A stretch of 18,254 bases of DNA. Source: Candidatus Methylomirabilota bacterium. GTDB taxonomy: Bacteria; Methylomirabilota; Methylomirabilia; Rokubacteriales; CSP1-6. The notes below the pieces were generated by a model. The model was not told where the DNA came from. It made no database searches and saw only the letters and a program-made list of their open reading frames with translations. Positions within the stretch are counted from its first letter, which is position 1. Every line of letters begins with the position of its first letter. Shown piece after piece: positions 2 to 17,749 of the stretch. Position numbers and translations under genes: made by a program. The stretch is from positions 1 to 18,254 of the forward strand of contig JBKPAK010000271.1 of assembly GCA_046726415.1 (NCBI GenBank), read 5' to 3'.

Positions 2-3000
2 CCCATCAATGAAGTGGCCGCGTCAATCGTTCAGCGGGGAGACTTCCGAGCGGCCGTGGCGGCCAACCGGCCCTGGATCTCCGACGCCATCGTCGACGCG
101 CGCGCGCAGCCCACCATCCTCATTGCCGTGCCCGCCGGCCGCGACGGGGCGCCGGGTCCGGTTCTCGTCGCCGCGGTTCGCACCGAGGCCCTGGCCATGG
201 TGCTCGCCCAGCATCGCCTGCCCGAAGGGGCTTCTGCATACGTCCTCGACCGTCAGAACGCCGTCGTGGTGCGGCTGCCAGGGGAGGGGCCGGACCAGGC
301 GACGCCGCTGCATGAGGGTCTCATGCGCAACCAGCAACGCGCATGGGATGGCTTCGCGAGGCTTCCCTCGGCAGCCGGCCAGTCGGTGTACGCAGCCTTC
401 ACCCGATCGCCGACGTCGAACTGGACGGTCACGCTCGTCGTTCCCGAAGCCGCCTTCAACGCGCCGTGGCGGCGGTGGCTGTGGACGGTCGTCGGAGGCG
501 GTCTCCTCCTGCTTCTCCTGGGAGTCGGCTTGGCCTCGCTGGTGGCTCGGCGCATCGCCCGCGCGATCGTGGCTCTGTCGGCGGCCGCCCGCGCCTTGGG
601 GCGAGGCGAAGTGCCGCGTGCCGATGCCTTCGGGATCGCTGAGGTCGACGAGGTGGGGCAGGCGATCGCCGAGGCGGCGGTGGCCCGGCAGCGGGCCGAG
701 GAAGCGCTTCGCCGGAGCGAGGCCTGGCTTCACACGACCCTTCGGGGTATCGGCGACGCCGTGCTGGCCACCGATACGAACGGTCGCGTCACCTTCATGA
801 ATCCCGTGGCCGAGTCGATGACCGGCTGGACGCTCCACGAGGCGGCGGGACAACCGCTCGATCGGATCTTCGTCATTTCGAACGAGGCGACACGAGAGCG
901 CGAGGAAACTCCAGTGGCGAAGGTCCTCCGGGAGGGCGCGGTGGTCGGGTTGGGCAGTCACGCGATCCTCACGAGCCGGGAGGGCACGGAGACGCCGATC
1001 GATGACAGCGCGGCGCCCATCCGCGACGAGGCCGGACGCGCGATCGGCGTGGTGCTGGTCTTCCGGGACGTCACCGAGCGACGGCACACCGAGCACATGC
1101 TGCGCACGAGCGAGGCGCGCTATCGGGCTATCGTCGAGGATCAGACCGAGCTGGTGTGTCGCTTCTCCCCGAGCGGACGTCTCACCTTTGTCAACGAGGC
1201 GTGCGAGCGCTATTTTGGGCGCCCACGAGATGCTCTGCAGGGGGAGAGCTTCATCGCCTTGCTCCATCCCGAGGATCGCGAACGCGTGGCGAAGAACCTC
1301 GCGCTCCTCGGGCCGAGCCAGGTGACGGTGAATATCGAGAGCCGGATCGTCGGAAGGGATGGTCAGATCGGCTGGACGCAGTGGACCACCCACGCGATCG
1401 TCGAGGGCGACGGGCCGGTGATGGAAGTGCAGGCGGTAGGGCGAGACATCACCGGCCGGAAGATGGTCGAGCAGGCGCTGGCGCGCATCACCGAGGATCT
1501 CGCCGGGCGCGCGCGCCGGCAGGCCGCCGTCGCCCAGCTCGGACAACGTGCGCTAGCCGGCACGGATCTGGCCACCCTCCAGGAGGAAGCAGCGAAGCTC
1601 CTGTGCGGGGCCCTCGGGGCGGAGTTTTGCCGCGTGCTCGAGCTATCCGGAGACGGTCAGCGCCTGGAGATCCGCGCCAAGGTCGGATGGCCAGTAGGAT
1701 CGCCGCTCGTCGTCCCGGCAACGGGCTCCGAAGCGGAGCAGGCGCTCTCGAACTTGGAACCGGTCATCATCGAGGATCTCGAGGCCGACCAGCGCTTTCG
1801 CGGCGACCCGCTGCTGCGGCGCGCGGGCATCGTCAGCGGGATGAGCGTGATGATCCTCGGCCACCCGCGGCCGTACGGCCTTCTGAGCGTGCACACGACG
1901 AATCGCCGGACCTTCACCCCGGACGATGTCAACTTCCTGCACAGCGTGGCGAACGTCCTGGCCACCGCGATCGCCCGGGCGCGGGCGGAGACGGAGCGGG
2001 CCGAGCTGTTGCGGCGCGCCCAAGAGGCGCAAGTCTCCGCCGAACAGGCAAACCGCGCCAAGGACGAATTCCTGGCCATGCTGGGGCACGAGCTGCGCAA
2101 CCCGCTGGCCGCGATCGTCAACGCTGGCCGCGTCCTCGAGCAGACCCGGACGGAAGACGACCGCACAATCCAGCTCGGGTCGATCATCGCGCGGCAGAGC
2201 GGCCACCTCTCGCGCATGGTCGACGACCTCCTGGATGTTTCGCGCCTGGGCTCCGGCAAGATCGCGCTGCGGCGGGAACCGGTGGACTTGAAGGACGTGG
2301 TCGAACGCTCGGTCGGGTCATTTCGGGACGCCGGGCGAATCGAGCGGCACCACCTCGCGGTCGAGGCCGAGTCCGTACCCGTCTTCGGAGATCCCACGCG
2401 GCTCGAGCAGATCGTGTGGAACCTGCTCGACAATGCCCTCAAGTACACGCCGCCGGGAGGCCGCATCGTCGTTGCCGTCAGCCGCGATCGCAACACCGCG
2501 CTTCTGCGCGTGCGCGACACGGGCGTCGGGATTCATCCTGACATCCTGACCCACGTCTTCGACCTTTTCGTGCAAGCTCGGCCCTCGCTCGACCGGGCCC
2601 AAGGCGGGCTCGGACTCGGTCTCACGCTCGTGAGACGTCTGGTGGAGCTCCACGGCGGCGCCGTCTCCGCCTTCAGTGACGGACCGGGGCAGGGCAGCGA
2701 ATTCGTCGTCCGCCTGCCCGCGACAGTGGCGACGACGCCCGCCGCGCTCGTGCCCCCGGCGCCCACGGTGCGGGAGCGCCGCCGCGTGCTGCTGGTGGAA
2801 GACAATCCCGATACCCGCGAGGCGCTCGCCATTCTGCTGGAGAGCTGGGGACATCAGGTCGAGCAGGTCGGTGACGGTGCGAGCGCGGCAGCCGCCGTAG
2901 CCGCGGCACCTCCGGAGTTCGCGTTGGTCGACGTCGGTCTGCCCGACATGGATGGCTATGTCGTGGCGCAGCGGCTGCGCGCCATTCCGGCAAGCGCCGA

Positions 3001-3154
3001 CATCGTCCTGGTGGCCCTTACCGGCTACAGCCGCGAGGACGATCGGCGTCGGGCTCGCGAGGCCGGATTCGATGCGTACCTCGTGAAGCCCGTCGACCCC
3101 GACGCTCTGATGCGAATCCTCGACGGCAACTCCCCGCCCGCGCGCGACCTGTAG
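2..3154 (+). CDS. Membrane-bound hybrid sensor histidine kinase (TM-HAMP-PAS-PAS-GAF-HisKA-HATPase-REC), 5' end outside window
   Basis: The frame is open from base 2. It shows a TM segment WLWTVVGGGLLLLLLGVGLASLVA, a HAMP-like region, two PAS/PAC units ending RDVTER and RDITGR, and a GAF region (GIVSGMSVMI...FTPDDVNFL). Kinase motifs are H-box FLAMLGHELRNPL, N-box NLLDNALKY, G1 DTGVGI and G2 GGLGLGL. The C-terminal receiver reads LLVEDN / LVDVGLPDMDG / LVKP. No HPt domain seen. Confidence 0.95.
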   Translation, partial: PINEVAASIVQRGDFRAAVAANRPWISDAIVDARAQPTILIAVPAGRDGAPGPVLVAAVRTEALAMVLAQHRLPEGASAYVLDRQNAVVVRLPGEGPDQATPLHEGLMRNQQRAWDGFARLPSAAGQSVYAAFTRSPTSNWTVTLVVPEAAFNAPWRRWLWTVVGGGLLLLLLGVGLASLVARRIARAIVALSAAARALGRGEVPRADAFGIAEVDEVGQAIAEAAVARQRAEEALRRSEAWLHTTLRGIGDAVLATDTNGRVTFMNPVAESMTGWTLHEAAGQPLDRIFVISNEATREREETPVAKVLREGAVVGLGSHAILTSREGTETPIDDSAAPIRDEAGRAIGVVLVFRDVTERRHTEHMLRTSEARYRAIVEDQTELVCRFSPSGRLTFVNEACERYFGRPRDALQGESFIALLHPEDRERVAKNLALLGPSQVTVNIESRIVGRDGQIGWTQWTTHAIVEGDGPVMEVQAVGRDITGRKMVEQALARITEDLAGRARRQAAVAQLGQRALAGTDLATLQEEAAKLLCGALGAEFCRVLELSGDGQRLEIRAKVGWPVGSPLVVPATGSEAEQALSNLEPVIIEDLEADQRFRGDPLLRRAGIVSGMSVMILGHPRPYGLLSVHTTNRRTFTPDDVNFLHSVANVLATAIARARAETERAELLRRAQEAQVSAEQANRAKDEFLAMLGHELRNPLAAIVNAGRVLEQTRTEDDRTIQLGSIIARQSGHLSRMVDDLLDVSRLGSGKIALRREPVDLKDVVERSVGSFRDAGRIERHHLAVEAESVPVFGDPTRLEQIVWNLLDNALKYTPPGGRIVVAVSRDRNTALLRVRDTGVGIHPDILTHVFDLFVQARPSLDRAQGGLGLGLTLVRRLVELHGGAVSAFSDGPGQGSEFVVRLPATVATTPAALVPPAPTVRERRRVLLVEDNPDTREALAILLESWGHQVEQVGDGASAAAAVAAAPPEFALVDVGLPDMDGYVVAQRLRAIPASADIVLVALTGYSREDDRRRAREAGFDAYLVKPVDPDALMRILDGNSPPARDL

Positions 3155-4414: not shown

Positions 4415-5152
4415 ATGGCCATCAGGGTGAACGTCAGTGACACCGAGCGTGCTTTGACGCTGATCGTCAGCGGAAGCTTGCTCGCCAGTGCCCTGGCCCG
4501 GGCGTCCTCTCGGTCCTCGTGGGGGCTGGGACTCATCGCCGGTGCTCTGGCCTACCGGTCCCTCCGCGGTCAGTGTCCCCTCTACCGCGCTCTGGGCTTG
4601 CGGACCGCGGCGGAGTCCGGCGGGCAAGGCGGAGTGGCCACAGCGCCGTCGGCGTTGTTGGTCGAGAAGAGCACCACCATCAGACGGCCGCGCGATGAGG
4701 TCTATCGGTTCTGCCGCACGCTCGACAATCTGCCACTCTTCATGACCCACGTGCAGGCCGTGAAGACGGCGCCCGATGGGACATCGCATTGGACGGTGCA
4801 GGGGCCAGCCGGGATCACTCTCGAGTGGGACGCCGAGGTGACGGCCGACACTCCGGGCGAGGTCATCGCCTGGTCGACGCGGGCGGACTCCGACGTCCGC
4901 CATGAAGGCACGGTGCGCTTCGCCCCGGCGCCCGGCGCGCGCGGCACCGAGATCCGCGTCCAACTGCGCTATGAATGCATGGGTGGCAAGCTCGCCGCCC
5001 TCGTGGCCACGTTGATGGGCGAGGAGCCGTCCCAGCAAGTGGAGAGCGATCTGCGGCGCCTGAAGCAGATCCTCGAAGCCGGCGAAGTGGCCACCGGAAC
5101 ACGGAGGCGGGGCATGAACGACATGGCCCCACGAGCATGGAGGTGGACATGA
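4415..5152 (+). CDS. DUF2892 + SRPBCC (cyclase/dehydrase, START-fold) family protein
   Basis: N-terminal NVSDTER...[10 protein letters not shown] is DUF2892/YgaP-like. It is followed by SRPBCC-type [45 protein letters not shown] and [14 protein letters not shown]. Start 4415 has a purine-rich RBS; an alternative in-frame ATG lies at 4361. Confidence 0.9.
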
Positions 5153-6318: not shown

Positions 6319-7009
6319 GCGAATGGCGCCTCGGGTGTCGCGGCCTTCGGCGGAGCACCCAGGCGACCCTTTGCAGGTCCTGGACGAAGCGCTGCATCTC
6401 CTCGCGCCGGGCGGCCTCGTCAGGGCTGCGGAGCACCGCCGACGGGTGCACGGTGGCCATCACACGCGGCGCGAGCGACGAGGAGACAAAGCGTCCCTGC
6501 TGTTCGCGGACGCGGAAATCGCGGCCGAGCAATCCCTGCGCAGCGGTCGCTCCGAGGCACACGATCACCTCGGGGCTGATGCGGGCGATCTCGGCGCCCA
6601 CCCAGGGAAGGCAGGCAGCGACCTCCCGCCCGTTCGGCTTGGCGTGAATTCGCCGCTTTCCCCGGGGCTCCCACTTGAAGTGCTTCACGATATTGGTGAC
6701 GTAGACGTCCGAGCGGTCGATCCCCGCGGCCACCAGGGCCCGATCGAGCAGGCGCCCGGCCGGGCCCACGAACGGCTCTCCGGCGAGGTCCTCCTCGTGG
6801 CCAGGCTGTTCGCCCACGAACACGACGCGCGCCGTGGCGGGCCCACGTCCGAAGACGGTCTGGGTCGCCCTCCGGTACAGGTCGCAGGCCGTGCATCCGG
6901 CGGCGAGACGCCTCAGGGCGGCCAGGCCGAGGTGTGCCGGGATCCGAAGCACCGCGGGGGCCAGCGGGCCCGATGCGCGGCGAGTCACTCTGCCTGGAGC
7001 TCTGGCCAT
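6308..7009 (-). CDS. udgX: UdgX-family uracil-DNA binding protein (family 4 UDG with R-loop)
   Basis: Fe-S ligands CTACDL and AACLPW, motif A GEQPG, VKHFKW, the diagnostic KRRIH loop and motif B HPSAVLR. Confidence 0.93.
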
Positions 7010-7554
7010 CAGCCCCGGGCGGCGCTTGCGATGGCGCCGCAGGCGATGCGGCTACCGCTGTTCCCCGCCGGAACACTGCGCATGTCGTCCGGCGCAGCGT
7101 GAATGATGAGGGCGCTGCCGTCGGCGTCGAAGAGGGAGGCCGGCCCCTGGCGCAGCGTGATCTGGTTGGTGGTGACGTCGAGGCGGCCCTGTCCACTCGC
7201 GTCGATGCTGATGTTCGGCAGGTCGCCGCCATGCGGTCCTCGAGGATTTGCCAGACCGTGCTCCTTGCCCGTCGGATTGAAGTGGGCCTTGGCCGAGTCG
7301 AACGACGGCGCCTCGCAGTGTCCTACTTCGTGGATATGCACCGCCTTGTCACCCGGGGGCAGCCCCGCGACGTCGACGATGACCCGAACTCCGTCGCGGG
7401 TTTCCGAGAGAGTGGCTTTTCCCACTGTGCGACCGCTCCCATCCACGAGGTGCGCCGTGGAAGACGCGGTGCTGGCGGTATCGGGGGTCGGTGAGGTCGG
7501 CCCACTGCATCCGAACGAGACGGCGACGAGCCCGAGTATTGCCAGTGTCTTCAT
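7009..7554 (-). CDS. sodC: Cu/Zn superoxide dismutase family lipoprotein
   Basis: RBS GGAGGA before ATG 7554 and signal/lipobox MKTLAILGLVAVSFGC. All expected metal ligands are present (VHIHE, AHFNP, EHG, PHGGDL, IIHA), plus GSRIACG. The stop overlaps the udgX start (TGATG). Confidence 0.93.
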   Translation of the reverse strand: MKTLAILGLVAVSFGCSGPTSPTPDTASTASSTAHLVDGSGRTVGKATLSETRDGVRVIVDVAGLPPGDKAVHIHEVGHCEAPSFDSAKAHFNPTGKEHGLANPRGPHGGDLPNISIDASGQGRLDVTTNQITLRQGPASLFDADGSALIIHAAPDDMRSVPAGNSGSRIACGAIASAARG

Positions 7555-7608
7555 GCTTCCTCCGGGGCGATCTCGAAGGTTCCCCGACGAAGTCTCGGTG
7601 GGGGAGGC

Positions 7609-7625
7609 TGCAAGGCTCAGACCAC
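7609..7625 (-). promoter_or_regulatory. Putative sigma54 -24/-12 promoter for sodC-udgX
   Basis: The minus strand reads GTGGTCTGAGCCTTGCA: TGG-N10-GC with TTGCA. The -24 box deviates (GGTC instead of GGCA). Confidence 0.6.
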
Positions 7626-7695
7626 CGCGCTCGCGCCCTTCTGGCCTTCTATCTTTGTGCGATCTGCTGATTGATGCTGCCGCCCTGGCCAGTCG

Positions 7696-7712
7696 TTGGC
7701 GGTCTGCTTGCA
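7696..7712 (+). promoter_or_regulatory. Putative sigma54 -24/-12 promoter for the holin-like/DUF3618/DUF883 operon
   Basis: TTGGCGGTCTGCTTGCA: GG(7698-99)-N10-GC(7710-11). Predicted +1 near 7723, ATG at 7769. Confidence 0.72.
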
Positions 7713-7768
7713 ATCTCTGGATTAGCAGGCGAGCGGCGCCCGACGCGGCCGCGGTAGAGGATGGCACC

Positions 7769-8173
7769 ATGGCGGTCATTCAGAGAATCGATTTCGACAA
7801 GGAGGCCGATCGTGGGGGCCTCGGGATCCAGTTGGCGCGCCTCGCAAAACTGCATGCCGAGTTGGCTCTGGCCGAAGTGCGCGACCTGCTCGTCACGGCC
7901 GCGGTGGCCGTCGCGGTGGCCGTGCCCGCCGCTATCGCGATCGTGGCGGCGATCGTCGTGCTCATCGCAGCGGGCTTTGCGCCGCTCTTTGGAGCGCCGT
8001 GGGAGCACCTGGTGATCGCGGGCGGCGGTGTCTTGATCGTGTCATCTATAGCCATTGGCTGGAGCGTCTGGCGCCTGAGACACCTCAGGCTGCCTCGGGA
8101 GACGCTGAGAGCGCTGACGGAGAATTGGGAATGGCTCGTAGCTCAGGTGAGGTCCAGGCTGACATTGCGCTGA
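7769..8173 (+). CDS. Phage-holin-like family (YqjE/YhjD-type) two-TM membrane protein
   Basis: RBS AGAGGA. The pattern L..LHAELALAEVR is followed by two hydrophobic helices and a C-terminal PRETLRALTENWEWL, typical of this non-phage holin superfamily. Context includes a DUF883 gene. Confidence 0.8.
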   Translation: MAVIQRIDFDKEADRGGLGIQLARLAKLHAELALAEVRDLLVTAAVAVAVAVPAAIAIVAAIVVLIAAGFAPLFGAPWEHLVIAGGGVLIVSSIAIGWSVWRLRHLRLPRETLRALTENWEWLVAQVRSRLTLR

Positions 8174-8466
8174 CTCGAGAGGTCATCGAACGCGAGTTGG
8201 ACGCGCTCCATCGCCGCGTGCCCAAGCGCTGGTGGCTCTCCTACGCCTGGCTGGCTGGCGGCCTGGCGACGGGTGTGCTGCTGTCGCGCGCTCCACTGTT
8301 CGCTGTGGTGAGCCAGGGATTTCGGATGATCGAGTTCGGCGCCGCCCTGATGGGAACGGTGGCGATGCTCGAGCGCGCCCTTGCCGCGCGGCCGAAACCA
8401 CGCCCGGCAGGCTTTCTCGACGGCTATCATAAGACCACGAACCGCTTAGAAGGGGTGCCTCGATGA
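8131..8466 (+). CDS. DUF3618-like protein (YqjK-like position)
   Basis: MARSSGEVQADIALTREVIERELDALHRRV matches the DUF3618 amphipathic pattern and is followed by a TM segment. It overlaps the upstream gene by 43 nt and the downstream gene by ATGA. Confidence 0.72.
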   Translation: MARSSGEVQADIALTREVIERELDALHRRVPKRWWLSYAWLAGGLATGVLLSRAPLFAVVSQGFRMIEFGAALMGTVAMLERALAARPKPRPAGFLDGYHKTTNRLEGVPR

Positions 8467-8774
8467 CCGACCACGACGATGAGAGGAAGGCCCCGCTCGC
8501 CGATCTAAGCCACACGGCTCGTCGAGTCACCGAGTTAGGACGTGAGACGGCCGCGAAGACCAGTGAGTACGTCCGGGGGGGCCTCGACCGCGCCGCGGAG
8601 TACGCCGAGGACTTGACGGGTCGTGCGAGTGATCGCATCAGCGACTTCACGGGCCGCCCGCTCGACGTGTGGGCGCGCGAGCTCCGCCAGTTCGTCGAAC
8701 ACTCGCCGATAAAAGCCCTCGTCATCGCCGTCGTCGCCGGCTATCTGCTCGGGAGGGCCGTGCGCCGCAGCTGA
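8463..8774 (+). CDS. DUF883 / YqjD-ElaB family tail-anchored protein
   Basis: A helical hydrophilic body, then FVEHSPIKALVIAVVAGYLLGRAVRRS, the C-terminal glycine-zipper TM with basic tail. Confidence 0.85.
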   Translation: MTDHDDERKAPLADLSHTARRVTELGRETAAKTSEYVRGGLDRAAEYAEDLTGRASDRISDFTGRPLDVWARELRQFVEHSPIKALVIAVVAGYLLGRAVRRS

Positions 8775-8795
8775 GAGGAGCGAGCGCGGCGCTGG

Positions 8796-8820
8796 GTCGC
8801 TCCCTGCGAGGGATAGCGAC
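8796..8820 (+). terminator. Possible terminator hairpin after the DUF883 gene
   Basis: GTCGCTCCCT-GCG-AGGGATAGCGAC forms a 10-bp stem with a 2-nt bulge, 21 nt after the stop. Only a weak tail (ACTAATT) follows. Confidence 0.35.
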
Positions 8821-8930
8821 ACTAATTCGACGTCGCGCCCGCCGCCCACCGAGGGGTCGTCGAGCTCGTCGACGTCGGGCGCCCTTTCTGCTTCACCGTT
8901 TTGCAGAAGCTGCAGGTGCCCGCCCCGCCC

Positions 8931-8954
8931 GATGCCCCTTCAGATGCCCCTTCA
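8931..8954. repeat. Perfect 12-bp tandem duplication
   Basis: GATGCCCCTTCA at 8931-8942 and 8943-8954. Confidence 0.9.
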
Positions 8955-8991
8955 ATTGGGCGCGTTGAAGCATGCGGGCGATCCTTAGCCG

Positions 8992-9008
8992 GTGGCATCG
9001 ACGCTGCA
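8992..9008 (+). promoter_or_regulatory. Putative sigma54 -24/-12 promoter for the BON-M48 operon
   Basis: GTGGCATCGACGCTGCA: TGGCA, GG(8994-95)-N10-GC(9006-07). Confidence 0.75.
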
Positions 9009-9092
9009 GTGCACGAGAACGAGCGGTGGGGCCTTAGAGCCGGCCCACTAAGAATTGGCCAGCTCCAGCCACCGCCGAGAAGGAGGACCCCG

Positions 9093-9692
9093 ATGCGAAG
9101 CCAATGGATGACTGGCGTGGTCCTGGCGGTGCTGATCGCCGCACCCGTGGCCATCGAGGCCCAGACCTCGACCGACAGCGGGACAAAGACCGAGCGCGCT
9201 GTAGACAAGACTAAGGACGCGGCCGGGAAAGCGACCGCCGCGACCAAAGACAGTTGGATCACCGCGAAGGCGAAGATCGCTCTCTACGCGGATGATCGTG
9301 TCTCGGGCAGCGACATCAACGTCGATACCCAGAATGGCACGGTGACGTTGCGCGGAAAGGTAGCCACGGCCGACGAGAAGCGCGCGGCCGACGAAGTGGC
9401 GAAGACGGTGGACGGCGTGGCCGCGGTCCGCAACGAGCTCCAGGTGGTGCCCGCCGCCGAGCGCAAGGCGGTCAATGCCGAGGACAAGGATCTCAAGAAC
9501 GCGATCCAGAAGCGAATCAAGCAGGATGCGCGGCTGAAGGGTGCAGATATCGACGTGCAGGTCGACCGCGGCGTGGTGACCTTGATGGGTGATGTCAAGG
9601 ACGTGGGCGCGCGCGCCCGCGCCTCAGAAGTGGCTCGTGCCGTGCCGGGCGTTCGCTCGGTGAAGAACGAGCTTCGCGAGAAGAGCAGCTAG
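9093..9692 (+). CDS. OsmY-like periplasmic protein with two BON domains
   Basis: RBS AAGGAGG and a signal peptide ending AIEA. BON1 reads DSWITAKAKIAL...INVDTQNGTVTLRG...VDGVAAVRNEL and BON2 reads DKDLKNAI...IDVQVDRGVVTLMG...VPGVRSVKNEL. Confidence 0.93.
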   Translation: MRSQWMTGVVLAVLIAAPVAIEAQTSTDSGTKTERAVDKTKDAAGKATAATKDSWITAKAKIALYADDRVSGSDINVDTQNGTVTLRGKVATADEKRAADEVAKTVDGVAAVRNELQVVPAAERKAVNAEDKDLKNAIQKRIKQDARLKGADIDVQVDRGVVTLMGDVKDVGARARASEVARAVPGVRSVKNELREKSS

Positions 9693-9694
9693 CC

Positions 9695-10387
9695 ATGCAG
9701 TGGATGCGGCTCGCGGCGGTCATCATCGCCTGCGCGGCGAGCGGAGCCTGCGCCGTGGGAAGCGAGGCTCCGCCCCGCGAGCCGTCTCCCTCTCCCTCTC
9801 CCGCTCCGACCTCGCGCGCCGGAACTCCGAGCACGCGGCCACTCGGTCCCGAACAGGCGGCGCGGCTCCAGCGGCTGATGATTCCCCTCGTCAAGGCCAT
9901 GGATCACCCGAAGCCTCTGAACCAGGTGAAGATCGCCGTGATCGACGATCCCGGTATCAACGCCGCCAACGCCGGCGGGGGCCAGTTCTACGTGACTCGC
10001 GGCTTGCTCGAGCGCGCGAACGACGATCAGCTCCTCGGCGTCCTGGCTCATGAGGTTGCGCATGACGACCTCGGGCACGTGGCCAAAGTTCAAGTCCTGG
10101 GCGCTGGCGTCGGTCTGGGAATCATCCTGCTCGACCAGCTCGTCCCTGGAAGCCGGGCCCTCACGCCGATCGCCGGGGAGCTGATCGTCCGGGGGTACAG
10201 CCGGCGTGAGGAATATGAGGCTGACCGCCACGGCGTGACCTTGCTGCGACGCATTGGCCGATCCAAGGACGTCATGGTCAACACCCTGACGTGGCTGCTG
10301 CAGAGCTCCGGACCAAGTGGGGGTGGATTTCTCGCGACCCACCCCGCGACGGGCGACCGGATCCAGGCCCTCCGTGAGCTGAAGTAG
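9695..10387 (+). CDS. M48 family zinc metallopeptidase, probable lipoprotein
   Basis: INAA, VTRGLL, HEXXH (LAHEVAH), YSRREEYEAD and THP motifs. N-terminal signal with Cys and a Pro/Ser linker. Starts 2 nt after the BON stop. Confidence 0.92.
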   Translation: MQWMRLAAVIIACAASGACAVGSEAPPREPSPSPSPAPTSRAGTPSTRPLGPEQAARLQRLMIPLVKAMDHPKPLNQVKIAVIDDPGINAANAGGGQFYVTRGLLERANDDQLLGVLAHEVAHDDLGHVAKVQVLGAGVGLGIILLDQLVPGSRALTPIAGELIVRGYSRREEYEADRHGVTLLRRIGRSKDVMVNTLTWLLQSSGPSGGGFLATHPATGDRIQALRELK

Positions 10388-10449
10388 CCGCAGACGGCTG
10401 GAGGGCCTCCTCTGCTTCGCTGACGCGGTGGGACTTGCTTGTCCGCGTC

Positions 10450-11616
10450 CTACCAGTGAAGGGTCTCGCCGGGGACGAGGACCTTCATCCGCGCTTCCAG
10501 GCCGCGGCGGCGCGCTTCCCGGAGCAATCGCTCTGGCGGTTCCGCGAAGGGCTCCATGTTCATGTCGAACGTGCCCCAGTGCATGGGCACCAAGATCTGT
10601 CCGCCGACGTCCTCGAAGAGGCGAACCGCTTCTTCTGGATTCACATGGTTCGGATGGCGACTGACATACGCGCTATACCCGCCGATTGGCACCGTCGCCA
10701 ACTCGAACGGGCCGAGCCGCGCGCCGATCTCCTTGAAACCCGCGAAGTAGCCGGTGTCACCCGCGAAGAAGAACCGCTTGCTCTCGCCGAGCACGGCCCA
10801 GGAGGACCACAGCCGTCGATTCTGGTCAGTCAACGTCCGACCCGAGGAATGCTGGGCGGGCGTACACACGATGGTGAGGCCGCCCACGACGGTGGACTCC
10901 CACCAGTCCAGCTCCACGACCCGCGCCGCGCCCAAGTCGAAGAGCAAGGGGCGGAGTCCCAAGGGCACGACGAAGAGCGCGTCATGGGTACGGGCTATCC
11001 GGGACACCGTCTCGGGGTCCAGATGATCGTAGTGGTCATGAGAGATGACGACGGCGTGAATGGGCGGAAGATCCTCGAACCGCAAGCCTGGCGCGATCAG
11101 GCGGCGCGGCCCGGCGAAGCTCAGAGGACTCGCCCGGTCCCCCCAGTGAGGGTCCGTCAGAAGGTTGATTCCTTCCAACTGGATCAGAAACGTCGAGTGC
11201 CCGATCCATGTGGCCGTCGCGCGCGCGCCGTTGGCGCGCAGCTCCGCGCCGTCGTTCGCCTTCAGCGCGAAGGGCTTCCCACGGGGCTGGGCCGCCTGGC
11301 CGAGTCGGCGAAACATGCGGCTCGCTCGATCCAGCATCGAATACGAGTAGCTCGGATCGAGATTCTTGAATCCCTGGCTGAGGTGGTGAGAAGAGACATT
11401 CGATCCTGCGGTCTGCGCGGCGAGGCGTCCCACGTCCCCGGCGACCAAGAGTAGGATGACGGTCCAGGCGGCGATGGCTAGGCGCTGCGAAAGCCGCGCG
11501 CGCAGGGGTGCGCGTGAATGGAAGCGGGGAGACACAAACGTCACCGTACCATGCCGCAGGCGCAGGTCAACCGGCATGGATCTGAGCTGGTTCCGGTGTC
11601 GCGGCCGCCGTGTCAT
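10450..11616 (-). CDS. MBL-fold metallo-hydrolase (NAPE-PLD/RomA-like); start codon uncertain
   Basis: TWIGHSTFLI, LLTDP, SHDHYDHLD, PAQHSSGR, FFAGDTGY, PIGGY and PMHWGTF motifs, with an N-terminal hydrophobic segment. The true start may lie downstream (e.g. ATG 11577 or later). Confidence 0.9.
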   Translation of the reverse strand: MTRRPRHRNQLRSMPVDLRLRHGTVTFVSPRFHSRAPLRARLSQRLAIAAWTVILLLVAGDVGRLAAQTAGSNVSSHHLSQGFKNLDPSYSYSMLDRASRMFRRLGQAAQPRGKPFALKANDGAELRANGARATATWIGHSTFLIQLEGINLLTDPHWGDRASPLSFAGPRRLIAPGLRFEDLPPIHAVVISHDHYDHLDPETVSRIARTHDALFVVPLGLRPLLFDLGAARVVELDWWESTVVGGLTIVCTPAQHSSGRTLTDQNRRLWSSWAVLGESKRFFFAGDTGYFAGFKEIGARLGPFELATVPIGGYSAYVSRHPNHVNPEEAVRLFEDVGGQILVPMHWGTFDMNMEPFAEPPERLLREARRRGLEARMKVLVPGETLHW

Positions 11617-11783
11617 TCACGAGTAGTGTCAGCGTCACGAACGCGATCCGTCGCGGCGATTTAGCCGCGGGCCAGTGACCGCTGGTCCAGCGACGAGGCC
11701 GCGAGTTCGTGCAAGTTGCCGGGACAACAGTGCTCTGCCGATTGATTCGCCTCACGGCAACGGCGATCCCGAAAGGCGACTGC

Positions 11784-11800
11784 CTGGCATGGCGTCTGCA
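11784..11800 (+). promoter_or_regulatory. Putative sigma54 -24/-12 promoter for the LigD polymerase-domain gene
   Basis: CTGGCATGGCGTCTGCA: GG(11786-87)-N10-GC(11798-99). Predicted +1 near 11811, followed by RBS AAAGGA and GTG 11840. Confidence 0.75.
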
Positions 11801-11839
11801 TACGCTGGGCTAGAGTCAGGGCGAAAGGATTTGGCCGAC

Positions 11840-12763
11840 GTGACGAGTCGTCTGCTTGATATCGAGGGTCGCCGTCTCATTTTGGCGGAGGTGGGGTCTC
11901 CGGCGTGGTCGGGTGCTGGCCTGTCCAAGGCGGACCTCCTCGCCTATTACCTGGAGGTGGCAGACGAACTGCTTCCGTTTCTCCGCAATCGACCCACGAG
12001 CGTGGTCCGACGGAGCGAAAGCGGGCTCGAGGGCTGGAGCTTCGAAAAGAGCCCGGGCCCCGGCCTTCCGGGCTGGATTGGCCGATGCCAGGTGCGTGAT
12101 GAGTTGTCCCTGGCCCTGGTAGAGTGCGTCGTGGTCGACGAACGCGCGGCACTGGCCGCCTTGGTCAATACTGGATGTCTTTCGTTTCACCCCTGGAGCG
12201 CGACCTGCTCCGCGATCGACCGGCCCGATCAGATGTTGTTTGACGTCGATCCAACCGAGATCGCCTTTCGCGAGGTCCGCAACGCGGCGCTGCTTCTGCG
12301 GGACTTGCTCGCCCGATACGGCATTCGGAGTTGGGTGAAGACCTCAGGCGGTCGGGGAATACATGTGATGGTTCCCCTGCGTCCCCTTCATGCCTTCGAC
12401 GAGGTGCGTGCCGCCGCCGGGCTGATCGCGCGAGCGGCGCGCGTGCGAGAGCCCAAACTCTTCACCTTCGAGGTTCGCCGATCTCGGCGACGAGGTCGCA
12501 TTCTGGTCGACATCGAGCGCAACCGCTGCGGGGCGGCTCTGGTCAGTGCGTTCTCGGTCCGCCCGGAGTCCGGGCTGATCTCGGCCCCCCTGGACTGGCA
12601 GGATCTCGAACGTGCGGTCTATCCGGAAGACTTTCCCATGAGCGCGGCGAAGGCTCAGCATGCGAAGCTCGGCGCCCCTCTTCGCGAGTTCTTCGACCAT
12701 CCCCAGTCTCTCGAGCCTCTGCTCGACGTTGTCAAGGCACGGCAGCGACGCTCCGCAGGGTGA
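11840..12763 (+). CDS. Stand-alone LigD polymerase/primase (AEP) domain protein
   Basis: SKADLLAYY..V...LLPFLRNRP, FHPW, RPDQMLFDVDP (DxD), KTSGGRGIH, ILVDIERN and FSVR...SAPLDW. No ligase or phosphoesterase domain. Start inferred from the RBS and promoter. Confidence 0.88.
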   Translation: MTSRLLDIEGRRLILAEVGSPAWSGAGLSKADLLAYYLEVADELLPFLRNRPTSVVRRSESGLEGWSFEKSPGPGLPGWIGRCQVRDELSLALVECVVVDERAALAALVNTGCLSFHPWSATCSAIDRPDQMLFDVDPTEIAFREVRNAALLLRDLLARYGIRSWVKTSGGRGIHVMVPLRPLHAFDEVRAAAGLIARAARVREPKLFTFEVRRSRRRGRILVDIERNRCGAALVSAFSVRPESGLISAPLDWQDLERAVYPEDFPMSAAKAQHAKLGAPLREFFDHPQSLEPLLDVVKARQRRSAG

Positions 12764-12877: not shown

Positions 12878-12894
12878 TTGGCATGCAACCTGCT
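12878..12894 (+). promoter_or_regulatory. Putative sigma54 -24/-12 promoter for the NtrC-type activator
   Basis: TTGGCATGCAACCTGCT: GG(12880-81)-N10-GC(12892-93). Predicted +1 near 12905, ATG at 12938. Confidence 0.78.
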
Positions 12895-12937: not shown

Positions 12938-14329
12938 ATGCTTGACCGACGAACTTCCGGCGCCAGGGTCCTCGTCGTCGATGACGAGCCGGCAGAGCGC
13001 GAAATGTTGGCTCGGCTCATCGGGCAGTGGGGGTACGAGGTCGAGGCCGCGGAATCGAGCGATGAGGCACTCTCGCTAACGGAGACCTATCGGCCTGCTG
13101 TCGTGGTCACGGATCTGATTCTGCCGGGGACCGATGGGCTGAGTCTCTTGCAAACGCTTCGGGACAGTAACCGTCCCCCGGTGGTGCTCCTGGTCACGGG
13201 CCACGCGACGGTGGAATCCGCCGTCGAGGCGATGCGGCATGGCGCCCTGGATTATCTGACCAAGCCCATCGATGCGACGAGGCTGCAGCTGCTCCTCGAG
13301 AAGGCTGTGGAGCAGGATTCGCTCTCGCGCGAAGTGACTCTCCTGCGCCGCGAGCTCCGGCAAAGGGGCACCTTCGGCCGCTTCGTGGGGCAGTCCAAGC
13401 GAATGCAGGAGGTCTATCACCTCATCGAGCTGATGGCTACCAGCAATGCGCCGGTGCTGATCCATGGGGAGAGCGGGACCGGCAAGGAGCTGGCGGCGCG
13501 GACGGTACACGAGCTGTCCGATCGGCGGGCCCGGCCCTTCGTGGCCATCAACTGCGCCGCCATCCCCGAGACGCTCATCGAGAGCGAGATGTTCGGTCAC
13601 GAGCGAGGCGCGTTCACCGGCGCCAGCGAGCGGCGGATCGGCTGTTTCGAGCTGGCTGACGGGGGCACCCTGTTTCTCGACGAGGTGGCCGAGATGAACG
13701 CCGCCACCCAGGCCAAGCTGCTGCGCGTACTGGAAGACGCGGGCTTCCGACGGGTGGGCGGCAAGACGGAGGTCACGGTCGACGTCCGTGTGATCGCCGC
13801 CACCAACCAGGTGCCGGCCGAGGCCCTGGCCAGCGGCAAGCTGCGCGAGGATCTCTTCTACCGGCTGAGCGTGTTCGTCGTCGAGCTGCCTCCGCTCCGC
13901 GAACGGACCGAAGACATCCCATTGCTCGCCGCGACTTTCATTGAGGACTTCAACGCTCAGAACAATCGCTCGGTCAAGGGACTCACCCCGGAAGCGGAAG
14001 AGGCCCTCATGCGACACCCGTGGCCCGGCAATGTCCGCGAGCTGCGAAACGCCATGCACCGCGCGGTGGTGCTGGCCGGAGAGGGGGCCATCCCGCGGGA
14101 GCACTTGCCGCCTATCATACTGGGCGGGACGTCGCGCTCGGCGCGCGCCGCGGAGTTCAGCAAGGTCATCCCGCTGAAGGACGTGGAGCGCGAGATGATC
14201 GTCCGCGCCCTCGATGAGGCGAACTACCACAAGCCGCAGGCCGCGGCCATGCTGGGCATCAGCCTCAAGACGCTTTACAACAAGCTCGCTCGTTTTGGCC
14301 TGCCTCCCAACCGGGCGTCGGCTCCGTAG
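12938..14329 (+). CDS. Sigma54-dependent response regulator (NtrC/AtoC family: REC-AAA+-Fis HTH)
   Basis: REC motifs VLVVDDE / VVTDLILPG / LTKP. AAA+ motifs are Walker A GESGTGKE, ESEMFGHERGAFTGA (intact GAFTGA), Walker B LFLDE, REDLFYRL and WPGNVREL. HTH AAAMLGISLKTLYNKL. RBS GAGAGGGA. Confidence 0.96.
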   Translation: MLDRRTSGARVLVVDDEPAEREMLARLIGQWGYEVEAAESSDEALSLTETYRPAVVVTDLILPGTDGLSLLQTLRDSNRPPVVLLVTGHATVESAVEAMRHGALDYLTKPIDATRLQLLLEKAVEQDSLSREVTLLRRELRQRGTFGRFVGQSKRMQEVYHLIELMATSNAPVLIHGESGTGKELAARTVHELSDRRARPFVAINCAAIPETLIESEMFGHERGAFTGASERRIGCFELADGGTLFLDEVAEMNAATQAKLLRVLEDAGFRRVGGKTEVTVDVRVIAATNQVPAEALASGKLREDLFYRLSVFVVELPPLRERTEDIPLLAATFIEDFNAQNNRSVKGLTPEAEEALMRHPWPGNVRELRNAMHRAVVLAGEGAIPREHLPPIILGGTSRSARAAEFSKVIPLKDVEREMIVRALDEANYHKPQAAAMLGISLKTLYNKLARFGLPPNRASAP

Positions 14330-15021
14330 TGCGCTCGGAGCTCGAAACCATCGACCACGTGCTGCGGGGAGCGTTGAACACCGCCATGCTGAACCTGCAA
14401 TTGGTCTCCACCTCCGTCGGGCGCGACGAGCAGACGGCCCCGCTGCTCGACCGGGCGCGTGCGGAAATCCGGCGGGTGGCCGAGGTGCTGCTGCCAGCTG
14501 GGTTCAGCGTTCTCGGCCTCGAGGCCTCGGACGTCCGGCCGCTCGACGTGCGCCAGCTCGTGGAGGAAACGCTCGCCCAGCACGCGCTGGGGCCGGTGGT
14601 CGTAGCGGCCGGCCCGTGGCCAGCCGTGGTCGCCGATGCCGCGTTACTCGCCACAGCCATCGCGCACCTGGTTCGCAACGCGGTGGCGGCCACTCCAGCC
14701 GAGGGGCCAGTGCCCCAGGTTGCGGTCGATACGAGCGTCGAGGGTGAAGTAGCGCTTGTCGTGCGGAACACGTGCGCGGGCACGGTTCCACCCCTCGGCG
14801 AGGACGGCACACCCGTCGCTCGCGGGCACATCGGCGGCGTGACCGCCGTGGTGCGCATCGCTCGGCTGCACGGGGGCGCGCTGCGCTTCGAACGGCAGGA
14901 CCGCGAGCTGGTGGCGCGGCTGTCGATCCCGAACGCGCTACGCGACGGCCAAGCAGAGCCCGGTCATCAGCACTCGAGGGCGCGGAGCGCGCGAGTGCGG
15001 CAGAGCGTCTGGAAGCGGTAG
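14329..15021 (+). CDS. Sensor-less, degenerate histidine-kinase-like protein (DHp + HATPase_c-like)
   Basis: The GTG overlaps the regulator stop (TAGTG). It has an H-box-like DHVLRGALN at residue 10, an N-box-like HLVRNAVAA and a C-terminal RIARLHGGALRFE. G1 and G2 boxes are degenerate (NTCAG, GHIGG). Confidence 0.75.
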   Translation: MRSELETIDHVLRGALNTAMLNLQLVSTSVGRDEQTAPLLDRARAEIRRVAEVLLPAGFSVLGLEASDVRPLDVRQLVEETLAQHALGPVVVAAGPWPAVVADAALLATAIAHLVRNAVAATPAEGPVPQVAVDTSVEGEVALVVRNTCAGTVPPLGEDGTPVARGHIGGVTAVVRIARLHGGALRFERQDRELVARLSIPNALRDGQAEPGHQHSRARSARVRQSVWKR

Positions 15022-15714
15022 CACCCCCAGCCGATCGTCCTGCGTCGGAATCATCGAGGGAAGATCGCCGGGCGGCATGTCGATCAGTCTCGGCTGGCCT
15101 GGTCGGCCCAACTCCAGAAGGCGCCGAGCCATCCCCACCATGATCTGCGTCCCCGTCAGCCCGTCGTGCTGGGAGAGCTGGCTCGCCTCCTGGGCACTCG
15201 GGTGGGGGACGAAGCGCTTGACCGTCCGGATGCATAGGTCTTCGAGACCATTGATGGGGTCACCCGGTTGGATCCACGGCTGTCGGACGACCGGCCCCCT
15301 TGGGTGCGCACCGATCATTACGAGTACCTCCGGGCGGCGCCGGACGCCCCACGCCGCCTTGGCGAGCGGGTGAGCGAGGCGATGGCGGTTCGCTCCCAGC
15401 GCGGCTTGTGGAAGAACCAGCACGGTAGCCCGGGGCTCCCAGTCGTTGATCCGAAGCAGGGCTTCCGCCAGGGCTGGGGCAGTACCGCGATCGCCCGCCT
15501 GGAGCATCGGGATCGCACCGAGCCGCTCGGCATGCGCGGACATGTGCTCATCGACGTCGACCGTGAGGACGACCATGAGGCGTCGCCCGGGCACGAGGCT
15601 CAGCGCTCGGTCCACGCTGCCGGCGAATTCCGCCGTGTCGAACTGTTCCCATGCCGCCCGCGGCGGGCGGCGGTGCGGGAGGAGGAGTCCCCAAACGTGG
15701 CCCTGACCAACCAT
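14938..15714 (-). CDS. Degenerate mannose-1-phosphate guanylyltransferase-like (nucleotidyltransferase fold) protein
   Basis: The scaffold is recognisable (VWGLLL, QF, VDRALSLVP, LQAGDRGTAPAL, TVLVLP, LVMIGAHP, WIQPG, VKRFV..P), but the catalytic motifs are altered and the C-terminus is short. Confidence 0.7.
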   Translation of the reverse strand: MVGQGHVWGLLLPHRRPPRAAWEQFDTAEFAGSVDRALSLVPGRRLMVVLTVDVDEHMSAHAERLGAIPMLQAGDRGTAPALAEALLRINDWEPRATVLVLPQAALGANRHRLAHPLAKAAWGVRRRPEVLVMIGAHPRGPVVRQPWIQPGDPINGLEDLCIRTVKRFVPHPSAQEASQLSQHDGLTGTQIMVGMARRLLELGRPGQPRLIDMPPGDLPSMIPTQDDRLGVLPLPDALPHSRAPRPRVLMTGLCLAVA

Positions 15715-15782: not shown

Positions 15783-16337
15783 GTGAAGGTCTTCCACTGT
15801 GGCAACTGCCGGCACCTCGTGTTCTTCGAGAACACGCGATGCGTGAGATGCGAGCGCATGCTCGCCTATCTCCCTCACCGGGAGTCCATGGCGACGCTCG
15901 TGCCGGAGGGAGACCACGGATGGCGAGCGCTGGCCGTCCCGGTCGAACGCCTTCGGCTGTGCGAGAACTACACCGCGCACGACGTGTGCAATTGGGTGGC
16001 CCCCGCCGACGACTCGAAGCCCCTGTGCATCTCATGCCAACTCACAGGCGTCATTCCGGACCTGTCGCGTGTGGGCGCCAAGCAGGCGTGGTATCGGCTC
16101 GAGGCGGCCAAGCGCCGGCTGGTGTCCTCGCTGCTCACCTTGAAACTCCCGCTGGTCAGTCGCGAGGCCGATGCCGAGCGCGGATTGGAGTTCAAGTCCA
16201 GGAGTTCCGAATCCGAAGTAGCCCAAGCGAGACGAGGGCGGTCAGTGCGTGCCGCCGGCCAGGCAACAAGGCGCTCCGATTCCGCCGGGCTTCAGGCGAT
16301 GGCGGGCCAGCGGCTTTGGTCGGTCATGACCGGTTGA
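15783..16337 (+). pseudogene. Truncated putative zinc-binding metallopeptidase (DUF2248-type zinc-ribbon N-terminus)
   Basis: MKVFHCGNCRHLVFFENTRCVRC, LCENY...VCNW, CISCQL..VIPDLS, WYRLEAAKRRL and GLEF match the family N-terminal half. Similarity ends near 16195 and no HExxH domain follows. An in-frame TTG at 15762 with AGGAG is an alternative start. Confidence 0.75.
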
Positions 16338-17749
16338 TGGCGATGTTGCGACGGCGGGATTCCCAGCTCGACTCGGTATTTCGCCACCGTCCGTCGCGCG
16401 ATGTGGAGTCCCCGCCCGCGCAGGTGGGAGGCGATCTCGAGGTCGGAGAGTGGCTTGGCCGGATCCTCGGCCGTCACGCAGTCCTGGATCATCGTCTTGA
16501 CCGAGATGGACGACACCTTGCCGCCCCCGTCGGCGGCCAGGCCGTTTTGGAAGAAGAAGCGCAGCTCGTACAGCCCGCGCGGCGTGTCCACGTACTTGTT
16601 GGCGGTCACCCGGCTCACCGTGGACTCGTGCATACCGATGTCCTCGCTCACGTCATGCAAGGCCAGCGGCCGCAGATGGGCGACGCCCTTGTCCAGGAAG
16701 TCCCGCTGGAAGCGAAAGATCGAATCGGCCACTTTGCGCAAGGTGCGTTGGCGCTGCTCCACGCTCTTGATGAGCCAAAGAGCCGATCGCACCTTCTGCT
16801 CCACGTAGTGCCGCGCCTCGTCGCCCGATTGGCGCAGCAAGGACCGATAGAAGGCATTGATGCGGAGGCGAGGCACGCCCTCCTCGTTGAGCGCCACCAC
16901 ATAGTCCGTCCCCACTTTGTGGATGATGACGTCGGGGACGACGTAGCGCGGATCCTGGCTGTCGAAGCGCCGACCGGGCTTGGGCTCCAGCCGGTGAATG
17001 CTCTCAATGGACTGCATGACCTGCTCGGGCGTCACCTTGAGGACGCGCGCGAGATCGCCGTAGCGGCGGCGACCGAGTTCGGGAAAATGATGCTCGACGA
17101 TGGCGATGGCCAGGGCATCGGGCGCGGGGGCGGCCCGCAGCTGGAGCAGCAGGCACTCCTGGACCGACCGCGCAGCCACCCCCGGCGGGTCGAAGCCCTG
17201 CACGAGGGCCAGCACTCTGTGGACATCCGCCGGGCGCGCGGCGCAGCCGCGCGCGATGTCCTCCAGGTCGGCCCGAAGATAACCGTCATCGTCGAGGTTC
17301 CCGATGATGGCGCCGCCGACGCGGCGCACCAGCGAATCGTCCGTGGATAGGCGCAGCTGTTCGTCGAGGTGGTCGCCCAGGGAGTCCACCGTGCGCAGCG
17401 CGCTTTCAAACGGCTGCTCGCGCTCCTCCTCGGCGACCAGCGAGCGGTCGGGGGGACCGTCGTCCCCTACCGCGGTGACGTCGAAGGGCAAATCATGGCT
17501 CGGTGGCTCGCGTGGCCCCGTGGCCTCGAGGCTCACCTCCGACGGAAGGTCCGGGCTCGCAGCCGAGTCACCTCCGTCCGGGGTGTCGCCGGGGTCGGTG
17601 GATTCCTCGAGCAAAGGGTTTTCCAGCAACTCATTCTGGACCACTTGCTGCAGATCTGCGGTCGAGAGCTGAAGGAGCTCGATGGCCTGCTGGAGAGCGG
17701 GGGTCATGATCACCCGCTGACTCTGTCGAAGCGCGAGCTGCTGTTCCAT
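16292..17749 (-). CDS. rpoN: RNA polymerase sigma-54 factor
   Basis: Region I MEQQLALRQSQ..MTPALQQAIELLQLS, IIGNLDDDGYL, DPPGVAARSVQECLLLQL, HTH MHESTVSRVTANKY, ELRFFF, PLSD and RpoN box ARRTVAKYR. Confidence 0.97.
   Translation of the reverse strand: MEQQLALRQSQRVIMTPALQQAIELLQLSTADLQQVVQNELLENPLLEESTDPGDTPDGGDSAASPDLPSEVSLEATGPREPPSHDLPFDVTAVGDDGPPDRSLVAEEEREQPFESALRTVDSLGDHLDEQLRLSTDDSLVRRVGGAIIGNLDDDGYLRADLEDIARGCAARPADVHRVLALVQGFDPPGVAARSVQECLLLQLRAAPAPDALAIAIVEHHFPELGRRRYGDLARVLKVTPEQVMQSIESIHRLEPKPGRRFDSQDPRYVVPDVIIHKVGTDYVVALNEEGVPRLRINAFYRSLLRQSGDEARHYVEQKVRSALWLIKSVEQRQRTLRKVADSIFRFQRDFLDKGVAHLRPLALHDVSEDIGMHESTVSRVTANKYVDTPRGLYELRFFFQNGLAADGGGKVSSISVKTMIQDCVTAEDPAKPLSDLEIASHLRGRGLHIARRTVAKYRVELGIPPSQHRHQPVMTDQSRWPAIA

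Follow-up and report, generated by a model that had tools for sequence, protein, structure and literature searches.

The contig JBKPAK010000271.1 of a Candidatus Methylomirabilota bacterium (order Rokubacteriales; assembly GCA_046726415.1) encodes at 14329..15021 on the forward strand a 230-aa histidine-kinase-like protein, P0001, which has no sensor domain and follows directly on the gene for an NtrC-type sigma-54 activator. The window analysed here is this entire contig of 18,254 bp (C271), which belongs to a 98% complete, 7.6-Mb metagenome-assembled genome of an uncultured soil bacterium. We propose, at chances that we judge to be about even, that P0001 is a kinase-dead dimeric histidine phosphotransfer partner of the receiver of the adjacent activator. 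In the proposed mechanism, an ancestral histidine kinase would have lost its kinase function while retaining a phosphorylatable His at residue 10 (His10), which would gain phosphate only by transfer from an aspartyl phosphate, because P0001 appears unable to autophosphorylate. P0001 could then either pass phosphate to the activator, in a LuxU-like relay fed by the receiver of a hybrid kinase, or remove phosphate from the phosphorylated activator as a sink that resets it, and we slightly favour a core activity in which phosphate is exchanged reversibly with the activator. Transcription of the operon appears to start from a sigma-54 promoter in front of the activator gene, so that P0001 would be made together with the activator in a feedback loop.

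Sequence motifs and predicted fold of P0001

In the translation of 14329-15021, the phospho-acceptor His10 (codon CAC at 14356-14358) is followed at the next position (H+1) by Val, and only nine residues precede it, which leaves no input domain. Relative to the canonical sister clade described below, P0001 has Val at H+1, has lost the Pro at H+5 and has Asp at H-1. The N-box reads HLVRNAVAAT with Asn117 at 14677-14679, the G1 box reads VRNTCAG (NTCAG being residues 147-151) with Asn147 at 14767-14769, the G2 box reads RGHIGG at 14821-14838 (GHIGG being residues 166-170), and there is no FxxF between G1 and G2. The translation thus bears out the initial annotation, which had described a His at residue 10 without an input domain, a non-acidic H+1, a G1 box degraded to NTCAG, a G2 box of GHIGG and a missing F box. 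It had also described the gene as translationally coupled to the NtrC-type gene, and the GTG start at 14329 indeed overlaps the TAG stop at 14327-14329 of the upstream open reading frame (ORF). In all five of the other loci of the clade to which P0001 belongs (clade a), the start likewise overlaps the upstream stop, there as GTGA (6/6 loci including the window), and the N-terminus of P0001 agrees with homologues starting with MRSELD. A 504-nt contig from a public run whose type is unknown (X3) spans the activator/P0001 junction with G to A at 14329 as its sole difference, turning TAGTG into TAATG, so that the upstream stop is kept and the start of P0001 becomes ATG, which fits the assigned start.

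Profile matches to P0001 were poor. HATPase_c scored 24.4 bits in Pfam, below its gathering cut-off of 26.4 bits, and went undetected in the genome-wide Pfam scan at E 1e-5, while no match to HisKA, Hpt (PF01627) or a ChpT- or Spo0B-type family was obtained at E up to 0.01. NCBIfam gave only partial matches of 17-18 bits, compared with about 50 bits over the whole length for P0028, a canonical relative. The AlphaFold2 model of P0001, built from a 34-row alignment, has a predicted local distance difference test (pLDDT) score of 86.8 and consists of two helices (residues 2-29 and 36-62) and a subsequent α/β domain. From the model helices and per-column counts, we placed the helical hairpin of the dimerization and histidine phosphotransfer (DHp) domain, with its H-box IDHVLRGALNT, at residues 2-62 (14332..14514, forward strand), and from the model, Pfam and the alignment we placed a catalytic and ATP-binding (CA)-like α/β domain at residues 67-203 (14527..14937, forward strand). 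In the tail (residues 204-230), which a convergent ORF overlaps, conservation is lacking and pLDDT is low.

The closest structures by Foldseek and VIA-align were HisKA-type kinases, namely HprS (Z 17.7), CusS (Z 17.6) and DivL (Z 17.0), with further matches to HK853, EnvZ, the CA domain of NtrB (Z 16.0, root-mean-square deviation 2.0 Å over 121 residues) and RetS (Z 15.3). ChpT and Spo0B were not among the 50 matches listed, an absence that does not exclude likeness, and neither came up when the clade-a profile was searched against the sequences of solved structures (E up to 10), which gave DivL first (1e-07) and then ZraS (5e-05). The predicted fold is therefore that of an ordinary HisKA-type DHp+CA protein, and together with the lack of sequence likeness to ChpT or Spo0B it agrees with the earlier view that P0001 is of a different type from both.

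Published rules for loss of kinase activity

The consensus of the H-box is reported as H-E/D-L-R-T/N-P-L (PMC3510030). Substitution of its acidic H+1 residue has been reported to kill kinase activity but not phosphatase activity in CrdS (E372A/D/G/Q), HK853, HK4262 and HK1190 (Willett and Kirby, PMC3510030), and the Thr/Asn at H+4 to be needed for phosphatase activity only (PMC3510030). In DosS, an Asp-to-Asn change in G1 is reported to have abolished nucleotide binding, while ATP is still bound with a lid of six residues and no F box (PMC10312584), so that by comparison a missing F box is not diagnostic whereas the Asn in G1 is. By these rules P0001 would be kinase-minus, and we infer that it is unable to bind ATP or to autophosphorylate. 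It would also be a poor candidate for a classical phosphatase, because it has no Thr/Asn at H+4 and nucleotide binding is probably lost. Since the His and the receiver-docking face remain conserved, these changes would indicate phosphotransfer. The clade-a H-box, HVLRGAL, resembles over this short stretch HTLKGAV, the motif of the sole Hpt of the genome, which is suggestive of a move of the H-box towards the Hpt motif.

Family, clades and genomic context

A word-indexed search gave 34 relatives of P0001, all 130-236 aa long, and a profile search of 1.84 billion representatives gave 27 at E up to 1e-30, with full-length members of 207-278 aa; the next profile matches below this threshold were generic long kinases. 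No family member in either search had a sensor domain. The family is Rokubacterial and monophyletic, with proteins of about 205-235 aa that contain DHp and CA only and are encoded directly after an NtrC orthologue. The lack of a sensor and of an F box is common to the entire family, canonical members included. No description of the family was found in PMC open-access papers or bioRxiv.

Three clades were distinguished. Clade b is canonical, with the motifs LLHDLRGPLN, VRDWGxG and GHRGxGL and matches to both HisKA and HATPase_c, while clade a (P0001 and P0005-P0025) has IDHVLRGALN, VRNxC and RGHLGG. Clade c (P0048, P0050 and a paralogue in G010) has Val/Ala at H+1 and no Pro at H+5 with the G1 Asp retained, and the three intermediates P0026, P0038 and P0039 likewise have Val/Ala at H+1, no Pro at H+5 and an intact G1 Asp. 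A quick IQ-TREE analysis supported the family (Shimodaira-Hasegawa-like approximate likelihood ratio test 99), clade a (99) and a grouping of clade a with the intermediates and clade c (95), which is sister to clade b (88). When the H-box and G1-G2 columns were removed, clade a (97) and the grouping with the intermediates and clade c (94) were recovered again. The activator tree leaves the branching order of clades a, b and c unresolved, as a trichotomy, and has a long stem leading to a; the gene pairs of activator and short kinase therefore seem to have diverged together.

The family profile was then run on 183 genomes of the order and matched 44 places in 43 genomes with at least 129 bits, the next best match being 91 bits. 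Thirty loci were fetched, including those of two unpublished genomes (L023 in G148 and L030 in G008) on which none of the conclusions depends. The short-kinase gene lay directly after the NtrC orthologue in all 30, with 64-82% identity for the activator but only 34-52% for the kinase-like protein. By the canonical profile and the motif table (HD H-box, DxGxG), 27/30 loci are fully canonical, one (L013 of G118) has a canonical H-box with a G1 of VRNWGAT, and clade a is represented only by the window (L004) and by L005 of G095, a genome of the same genus. Four more clade-a loci (L096-L099) came from metagenome contigs, all of them preceded by the activator gene, and in all eight metagenome loci examined the gene directly follows the activator. 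Apparent activator-kinase fusions, open frames of about 680 aa, were rejected as alternative frames of GC-rich DNA, since the two genes lie in different frames.

Two loci deserve separate description. At L013/L035 of G118 the H-box LLHDLRGPLN and the G2 GHQGVGL are canonical, yet G1 reads VRNWGAT, so that Asp-to-Asn at the adenine-binding position apparently arose there independently of clade a. At L104 (G010:C132, ~8438-10440) there is a second activator-short kinase pair, whose activator is 62% identical and which has two receiver genes upstream. In its kinase-like protein the H-box MSHVLRGSLQ lacks both the H+1 acid and the Pro, DWGRG is intact and G2 (HVATGL) is degenerate, and by its motifs this protein represents an intermediate state of degeneration.

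Conservation and selection in clade a

We compared a clade-a alignment of 22 sequences, down to 47% identity, with 17 canonical sequences. The phospho-acceptor His is present in 22/22 clade-a and 17/17 clade-b sequences, whereas at H+1 the clade-a sequences have Val (16) or Ala (6) as against Asp in 17/17 canonical ones. H+4 is Gly throughout clade a (22/22), and H+5 is Ala, Gly or Ser compared with Pro in 16/17 canonical sequences. The first residue of G1 is Asn in 22/22 clade-a but Asp in 16/17 canonical sequences, the second G1 glycine is replaced by Cys in 18/22 and the third is kept in 11/22, and the clade-a G2 RGHLGG is one residue shorter than the clade-b GHRGxGL. Clade a has 39 invariant columns, which include S3, E4, L5, I8, D9, H10, R13, G14, L16, N17, L21, N22, Q24 and L25 and, further on, N117, N147, R165, G166, G169 and G170, with H167 present in 21/22. 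The invariant positions thus take in His10 and the receiver-docking helix beneath it.

The ratio of nonsynonymous to synonymous substitution rates (dN/dS, NG86 method) was 0.19-0.44 over 15 clade-a pairs, with dS near saturation in most pairs; the closest pair had dN 0.018 and dS 0.070, a ratio of 0.25. Clade b gave 0.23-0.62 (15 of 45 pairs) and the activators about 0.09-0.2, where three of the six pairs, those with L005, were left out as faulty. Column entropy relative to the clade mean was higher in clade a than in clade b for the G1 strand (1.19 versus 0.81) and the lid (1.43 versus 1.13) and lower for DHp helix 2 (0.81 versus 1.09) and G2 (0.36 versus 0.68), a pattern consistent with relaxed G1 and lid regions and a tighter DHp helix 2 and G2 in clade a. 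The gene is thus maintained under purifying selection, with constraint that has moved from the adenine pocket to the DHp surface. The initial annotation had suggested examining whether His10 is invariant, whether the G-boxes are consistently degenerate and whether dN/dS lies below 1, and all three are the case within clade a, although the G1/G2 changes are not shared by the canonical orthologues. It had also linked a mere relic to homologues that all have intact G-boxes and a sensor domain: the boxes are indeed intact in orthologues from other genera, whereas a sensor domain is absent from all of them.

The activator and its predicted contact with P0001

The activator gene at 12938..14329 (forward strand) encodes a receiver (REC), AAA+ and HTH_8 protein with Pfam matches to Response_reg, Sigma54_activat, AAA_lid_14 and HTH_8 and an intact receiver active site. 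Its ORF opens at a TTG at 12878, but the true start is probably the ATG at 12938, which follows a GGAG-rich site, because the orthologues align from about residue 20 and a promoter-like element would otherwise lie inside the gene; the TTG appears too far upstream. D11, D12, D55, T83 and K105 of the receiver are kept in 21/21 sequences. Changes specific to clade a were observed in its contact regions, where Gly in α1 is replaced by Met, Pro or Thr and LPEMDG after the acceptor Asp by LPGTDG.

Complex prediction with two copies of P0001 and the activator receiver gave a score of 0.41 (runs 0.43, 0.41 and 0.38), compared with 0.01 for the best control; agreement between the runs was at least 86% of contacts, with a partner pLDDT of 79 or more. 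The mark used was passed by 116 of 157 solved complexes and by 2 of 215 mismatches in calibration, but passes scoring 0.60 or under comprised only 18 of the 157 solved complexes plus both mismatches. The pass may also reflect likeness only, because kinase-regulator complexes have already been solved, and the predicted complex lends weak support to the contact.

Several observations weigh against phosphotransfer between P0001 and the activator. The loss of ATP binding is read from motifs, and conservation of the N-box Asn117 and RGHLGG is higher in clade a than among the canonical sequences, so that a pocket still binding something would fit. P0026, P0038, P0039 and clade c have Val/Ala at H+1 yet an intact DxGxG, and a non-acidic H+1 may therefore not be lethal to kinase activity in this family. 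The changes in the activator receiver amount to one lineage event and not to statistical evidence. Diversity is also lower in clade a than in the canonical clade (mean column entropy of 1.15 versus 1.40), so invariance in clade a weighs less, and among the 73 receiver matches in the genome nothing singles one out as donor.

Alternative functions

The initial annotation had suggested a phosphorelay from the receiver of the hybrid histidine kinase encoded at 2..3154 (forward strand) through His10 to the activator, which would follow the logic of LuxQ/LuxN-LuxU-LuxO with a kinase-fold transfer protein. This specific route is in our view improbable, and the kinase is a candidate phosphodonor solely by its proximity. 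Pfam confirmed that the protein, whose 5' end is cut by the contig edge, ends in a REC domain and has no Hpt (dCache-PAS-PAS-GAF-HisKA-HATPase_c-REC). The genome has a single Hpt, about five further kinase-REC frames lack one by our reading of the domain scans, and the order of an activator gene and then a transfer-protein gene is that described for luxOU (PMC2632942), all of which would suit such a relay. A full-length orthologue (60% identity over residues 1-1041) was found only in G095, the one other reference genome with a clade-a gene, where it is part of the same cluster, some 13 kb upstream; the next full-length match, at 40%, is in G136, a genome without a short-kinase orthologue. However, this synteny comes from a single genus, no hybrid kinase was found in the 10-kb flanks of the canonical loci, and the hybrid receiver ranks 26th of 66 genome receivers in likeness to the activator receiver at 15 kinase-contact positions. 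Since kinase-REC cores with 50-58% identity to the hybrid kinase are plentiful in every genome compared, its proximity says little, and a relay from this kinase is possible but finds no specific support. The sole Pfam Hpt match of the genome (G000:C227:47636-48739, L003) sits in one 731-aa frame together with HATPase_c and REC, as in an unorthodox kinase.

About equally doubtful is that P0001 acts without phosphoryl transfer, as a non-catalytic pseudokinase that binds the activator receiver or another kinase and locks it in an active or inactive state, in the manner of NifL-NifA or DivL-DivK. In its favour, DivL is the best solved-structure sequence match of the clade-a profile, and the CA-like domain and RGHLGG are strongly conserved despite the lost ATP-binding residues. 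The invariant His10 and the complete phospho-acceptor site of the activator argue otherwise. DivL has replaced its His, and NifL acts on NifA, an activator without a receiver. DivL, RetS and NifL are likewise kinase-fold proteins repurposed for regulation, but they are large and multi-domain, whereas P0001 keeps its His and its partner the acceptor Asp; relative to NifL in particular, P0001 has no PAS or other N-terminal domain and its partner receiver is intact.

It is less probable still that P0001 is a working kinase with unusual motifs. The invariant N-box Asn and G2 glycines, the sensor-less build that it shares with its canonical sisters and the short DosS lid, reported to be compatible with ATP binding without an F box (PMC10312584), would all allow for this. 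The very change found in G1, Asp to Asn, abolished nucleotide binding in that same protein, however, and all four reported H+1 substitutions of CrdS abolished kinase activity (PMC3510030); the G1 glycines are degenerate in addition, and the HATPase_c score falls below the Pfam cut-off and outside the genome scan.

Nor do we give much credence to a dedicated, kinase-minus/phosphatase-plus phosphatase of the phosphorylated activator. Kinase-dead H+1 mutants of HisKA proteins remain phosphatase-competent (PMC3510030), and RedE is reported to dephosphorylate RedF-P (PMC2755868), but P0001 has Gly at H+4 in place of the required Thr/Asn, the activity of RedE needed ADP or ATP (PMC2755868) when nucleotide binding is probably lost in P0001, and phosphatase activity is often independent of the His as described in these sources (PMC2755868, PMC3510030), yet His10 is invariant.

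Finally, simple decay of a canonical kinase, which the initial annotation had left open and which the faster evolution of P0001 than of its partner (34-52% versus 64-82% identity) and the sub-threshold Pfam scores might suggest, is very unlikely because dN/dS is 0.19-0.44 and not above that of the canonical clade, the G1/G2 changes are clade-wide and His10 is found in 22/22 sequences, and the frame is open in all clade-a loci with the start-stop overlap and 39 columns conserved.

Comparison with known phosphotransfer systems

As a phosphotransfer partner, P0001 can be compared with several described proteins. ChpT has been reported as a kinase fold without ATP binding (PMC3433190). ChpT of Caulobacter and Spo0B of Bacillus, dimeric phosphotransferases, share with P0001 a DHp-like hairpin with a transferable His, a CA-like domain that, in P0001 putatively, no longer uses ATP and the lack of a sensor. 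In ChpT, however, the lid is described as replaced by extra helical turns and the H-box Pro38 as kept (PMC3433190), whereas P0001 has a short-loop lid, has lost the Pro and has ordinary HisKA kinases as its nearest relatives. Its origin would also be separate from that of ChpT and Spo0B and of recent date; canonical sister genes still occupy this locus in other Rokubacteria.

RedE of the RedCDEF system of Myxococcus xanthus is reported to lack a sensor and to take up phosphate (His24) from RedD without autophosphorylating (PMC2755868). By this description it is alike in being a kinase-like protein that takes phosphate from a receiver and acts on another regulator, but its phosphatase activity needs ADP/ATP, so it presumably binds nucleotide, and its partners are single-domain receivers and not a sigma-54 activator. 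In Vibrio, luxO and luxU are reported to be on one mRNA (PMC2632942), and LuxU to relay phosphate from sensor kinases to LuxO (PMC10841015). The likeness lies in an NtrC-type activator gene followed by the gene for a small transfer protein, a relay role being a proposal in the case of P0001. LuxU is a monomeric four-helix Hpt protein; P0001 differs in having a DHp+CA kinase fold and no Pfam Hpt match. The clade-b sensor-less kinases (for example P0028-P0037 and loci L006-L033) have the same length, fold class and place after the same activator, and differ in their canonical H-box, G1 and G2 and their HisKA/HATPase_c matches. By analogy, P0001 would work most like ChpT/Spo0B or RedE in a LuxO-LuxU-like operon while being a member of none of these groups.

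A broader evolutionary reading can be put forward only tentatively. In it, a HisKA kinase would have turned, independently and in recent evolutionary time, into the Hpt-like phosphotransfer protein of clade a, with the stages of this change still extant (clade b; clade c with P0026, P0038 and P0039; clade a). The clade-a H-box would have converged on HxL[KR]GA, and the protein would supply the missing step between the Hpt-less hybrid kinases of Rokubacteria and the sigma-54 activator of a stress/DNA-repair cluster (BON-M48, LigD polymerase), reinventing the LuxU-LuxO circuit with a kinase fold. The origin of ChpT and Spo0B from kinases is obscured by strong divergence, and here a putatively kinase-dead form under selection, intermediates and canonical sisters behind the same activator would offer a natural series of losses, in which those of the H+1 acid, the H+5 Pro, G2 and the G1 Asp can each be tested singly. 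P0001 is also a candidate answer to the question of how a genome with several Hpt-less hybrid kinases and one Hpt moves phosphate to its regulators. For annotation, P0001 cautions that the label 'signal transduction histidine kinase' on a short protein may not denote a kinase. As the organisms are uncultured, the value of the series lies in heterologous biochemistry.

Sigma-54 promoter-like elements and neighboring genes

A sigma-54 (-24/-12) promoter-like element, TGGCATGCAACCTGCT, was found at 12879..12894 on the forward strand, about 45 nt upstream of the activator start ATG 12938. The other three clade-a loci with upstream sequence have GGCA[TC]-N5-CTGC, read by eye, in the corresponding position, while several clade-b loci show TTGACA-N17-TTTAC there instead. 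For the exact pattern TGGCA-N7-TGC, the window has 5 matches where 0.61 are expected, and none of 200 shuffles reached 5. Two of these matches lie in front of neighboring genes, one at 8993-9008 before the BON-M48 genes (with a likely start ATG at 9094 after GAAGGAGG) and one at 11785-11800 before the LigD primase-polymerase gene, and a match also precedes the LigD polymerase gene in G095 (L095:2045-2059). From these positions, the activator probably drives its own operon and the BON and LigD polymerase neighbors.

RNA-seq data were also searched. None of the runs searched with words from the window contained half of them. A soil library (X1) gave one 248-nt contig on 14488-14735 with three differing letters, for which DNA carry-over is possible, and the other coverage of the window was mostly conserved AAA+ sequence from other organisms; these matches are no evidence of transcription.

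The region 3524-12763 of the window resembles a stress and DNA-repair cluster. It encodes an SRPBCC/YgaP-like protein, a Zn alcohol dehydrogenase (4975-6318), a UDG-family glycosylase (6308-7009, minus strand), a Cu/Zn superoxide dismutase (7009-7779, minus strand), a holin-X-like membrane protein (~7830-8173), a BON protein and then an M48 peptidase, an MBL-fold hydrolase (10450-11616, minus strand) and a LigD polymerase domain without the ligase domain. Among these, the holin-X-like gene, BON, the M48 peptidase, the MBL-fold hydrolase and the LigD primase-polymerase are common neighbors in related loci. The hybrid kinase and rpoN, the sigma-54 gene (16292..17749, minus strand, by Pfam), are not conserved in the neighborhood outside the genus, and rpoN is found at this place only in this genome and not in the related loci. 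Downstream of P0001, a convergent 258-aa ORF without a Pfam family (14938-15714, minus strand) overlaps the 3' end of its gene by 84 nt. A counterpart of this ORF with 30-38% identity lies directly after the kinase gene in canonical loci, whereas it is missing from the other clade-a loci, where a DUF3047 gene comes next instead.

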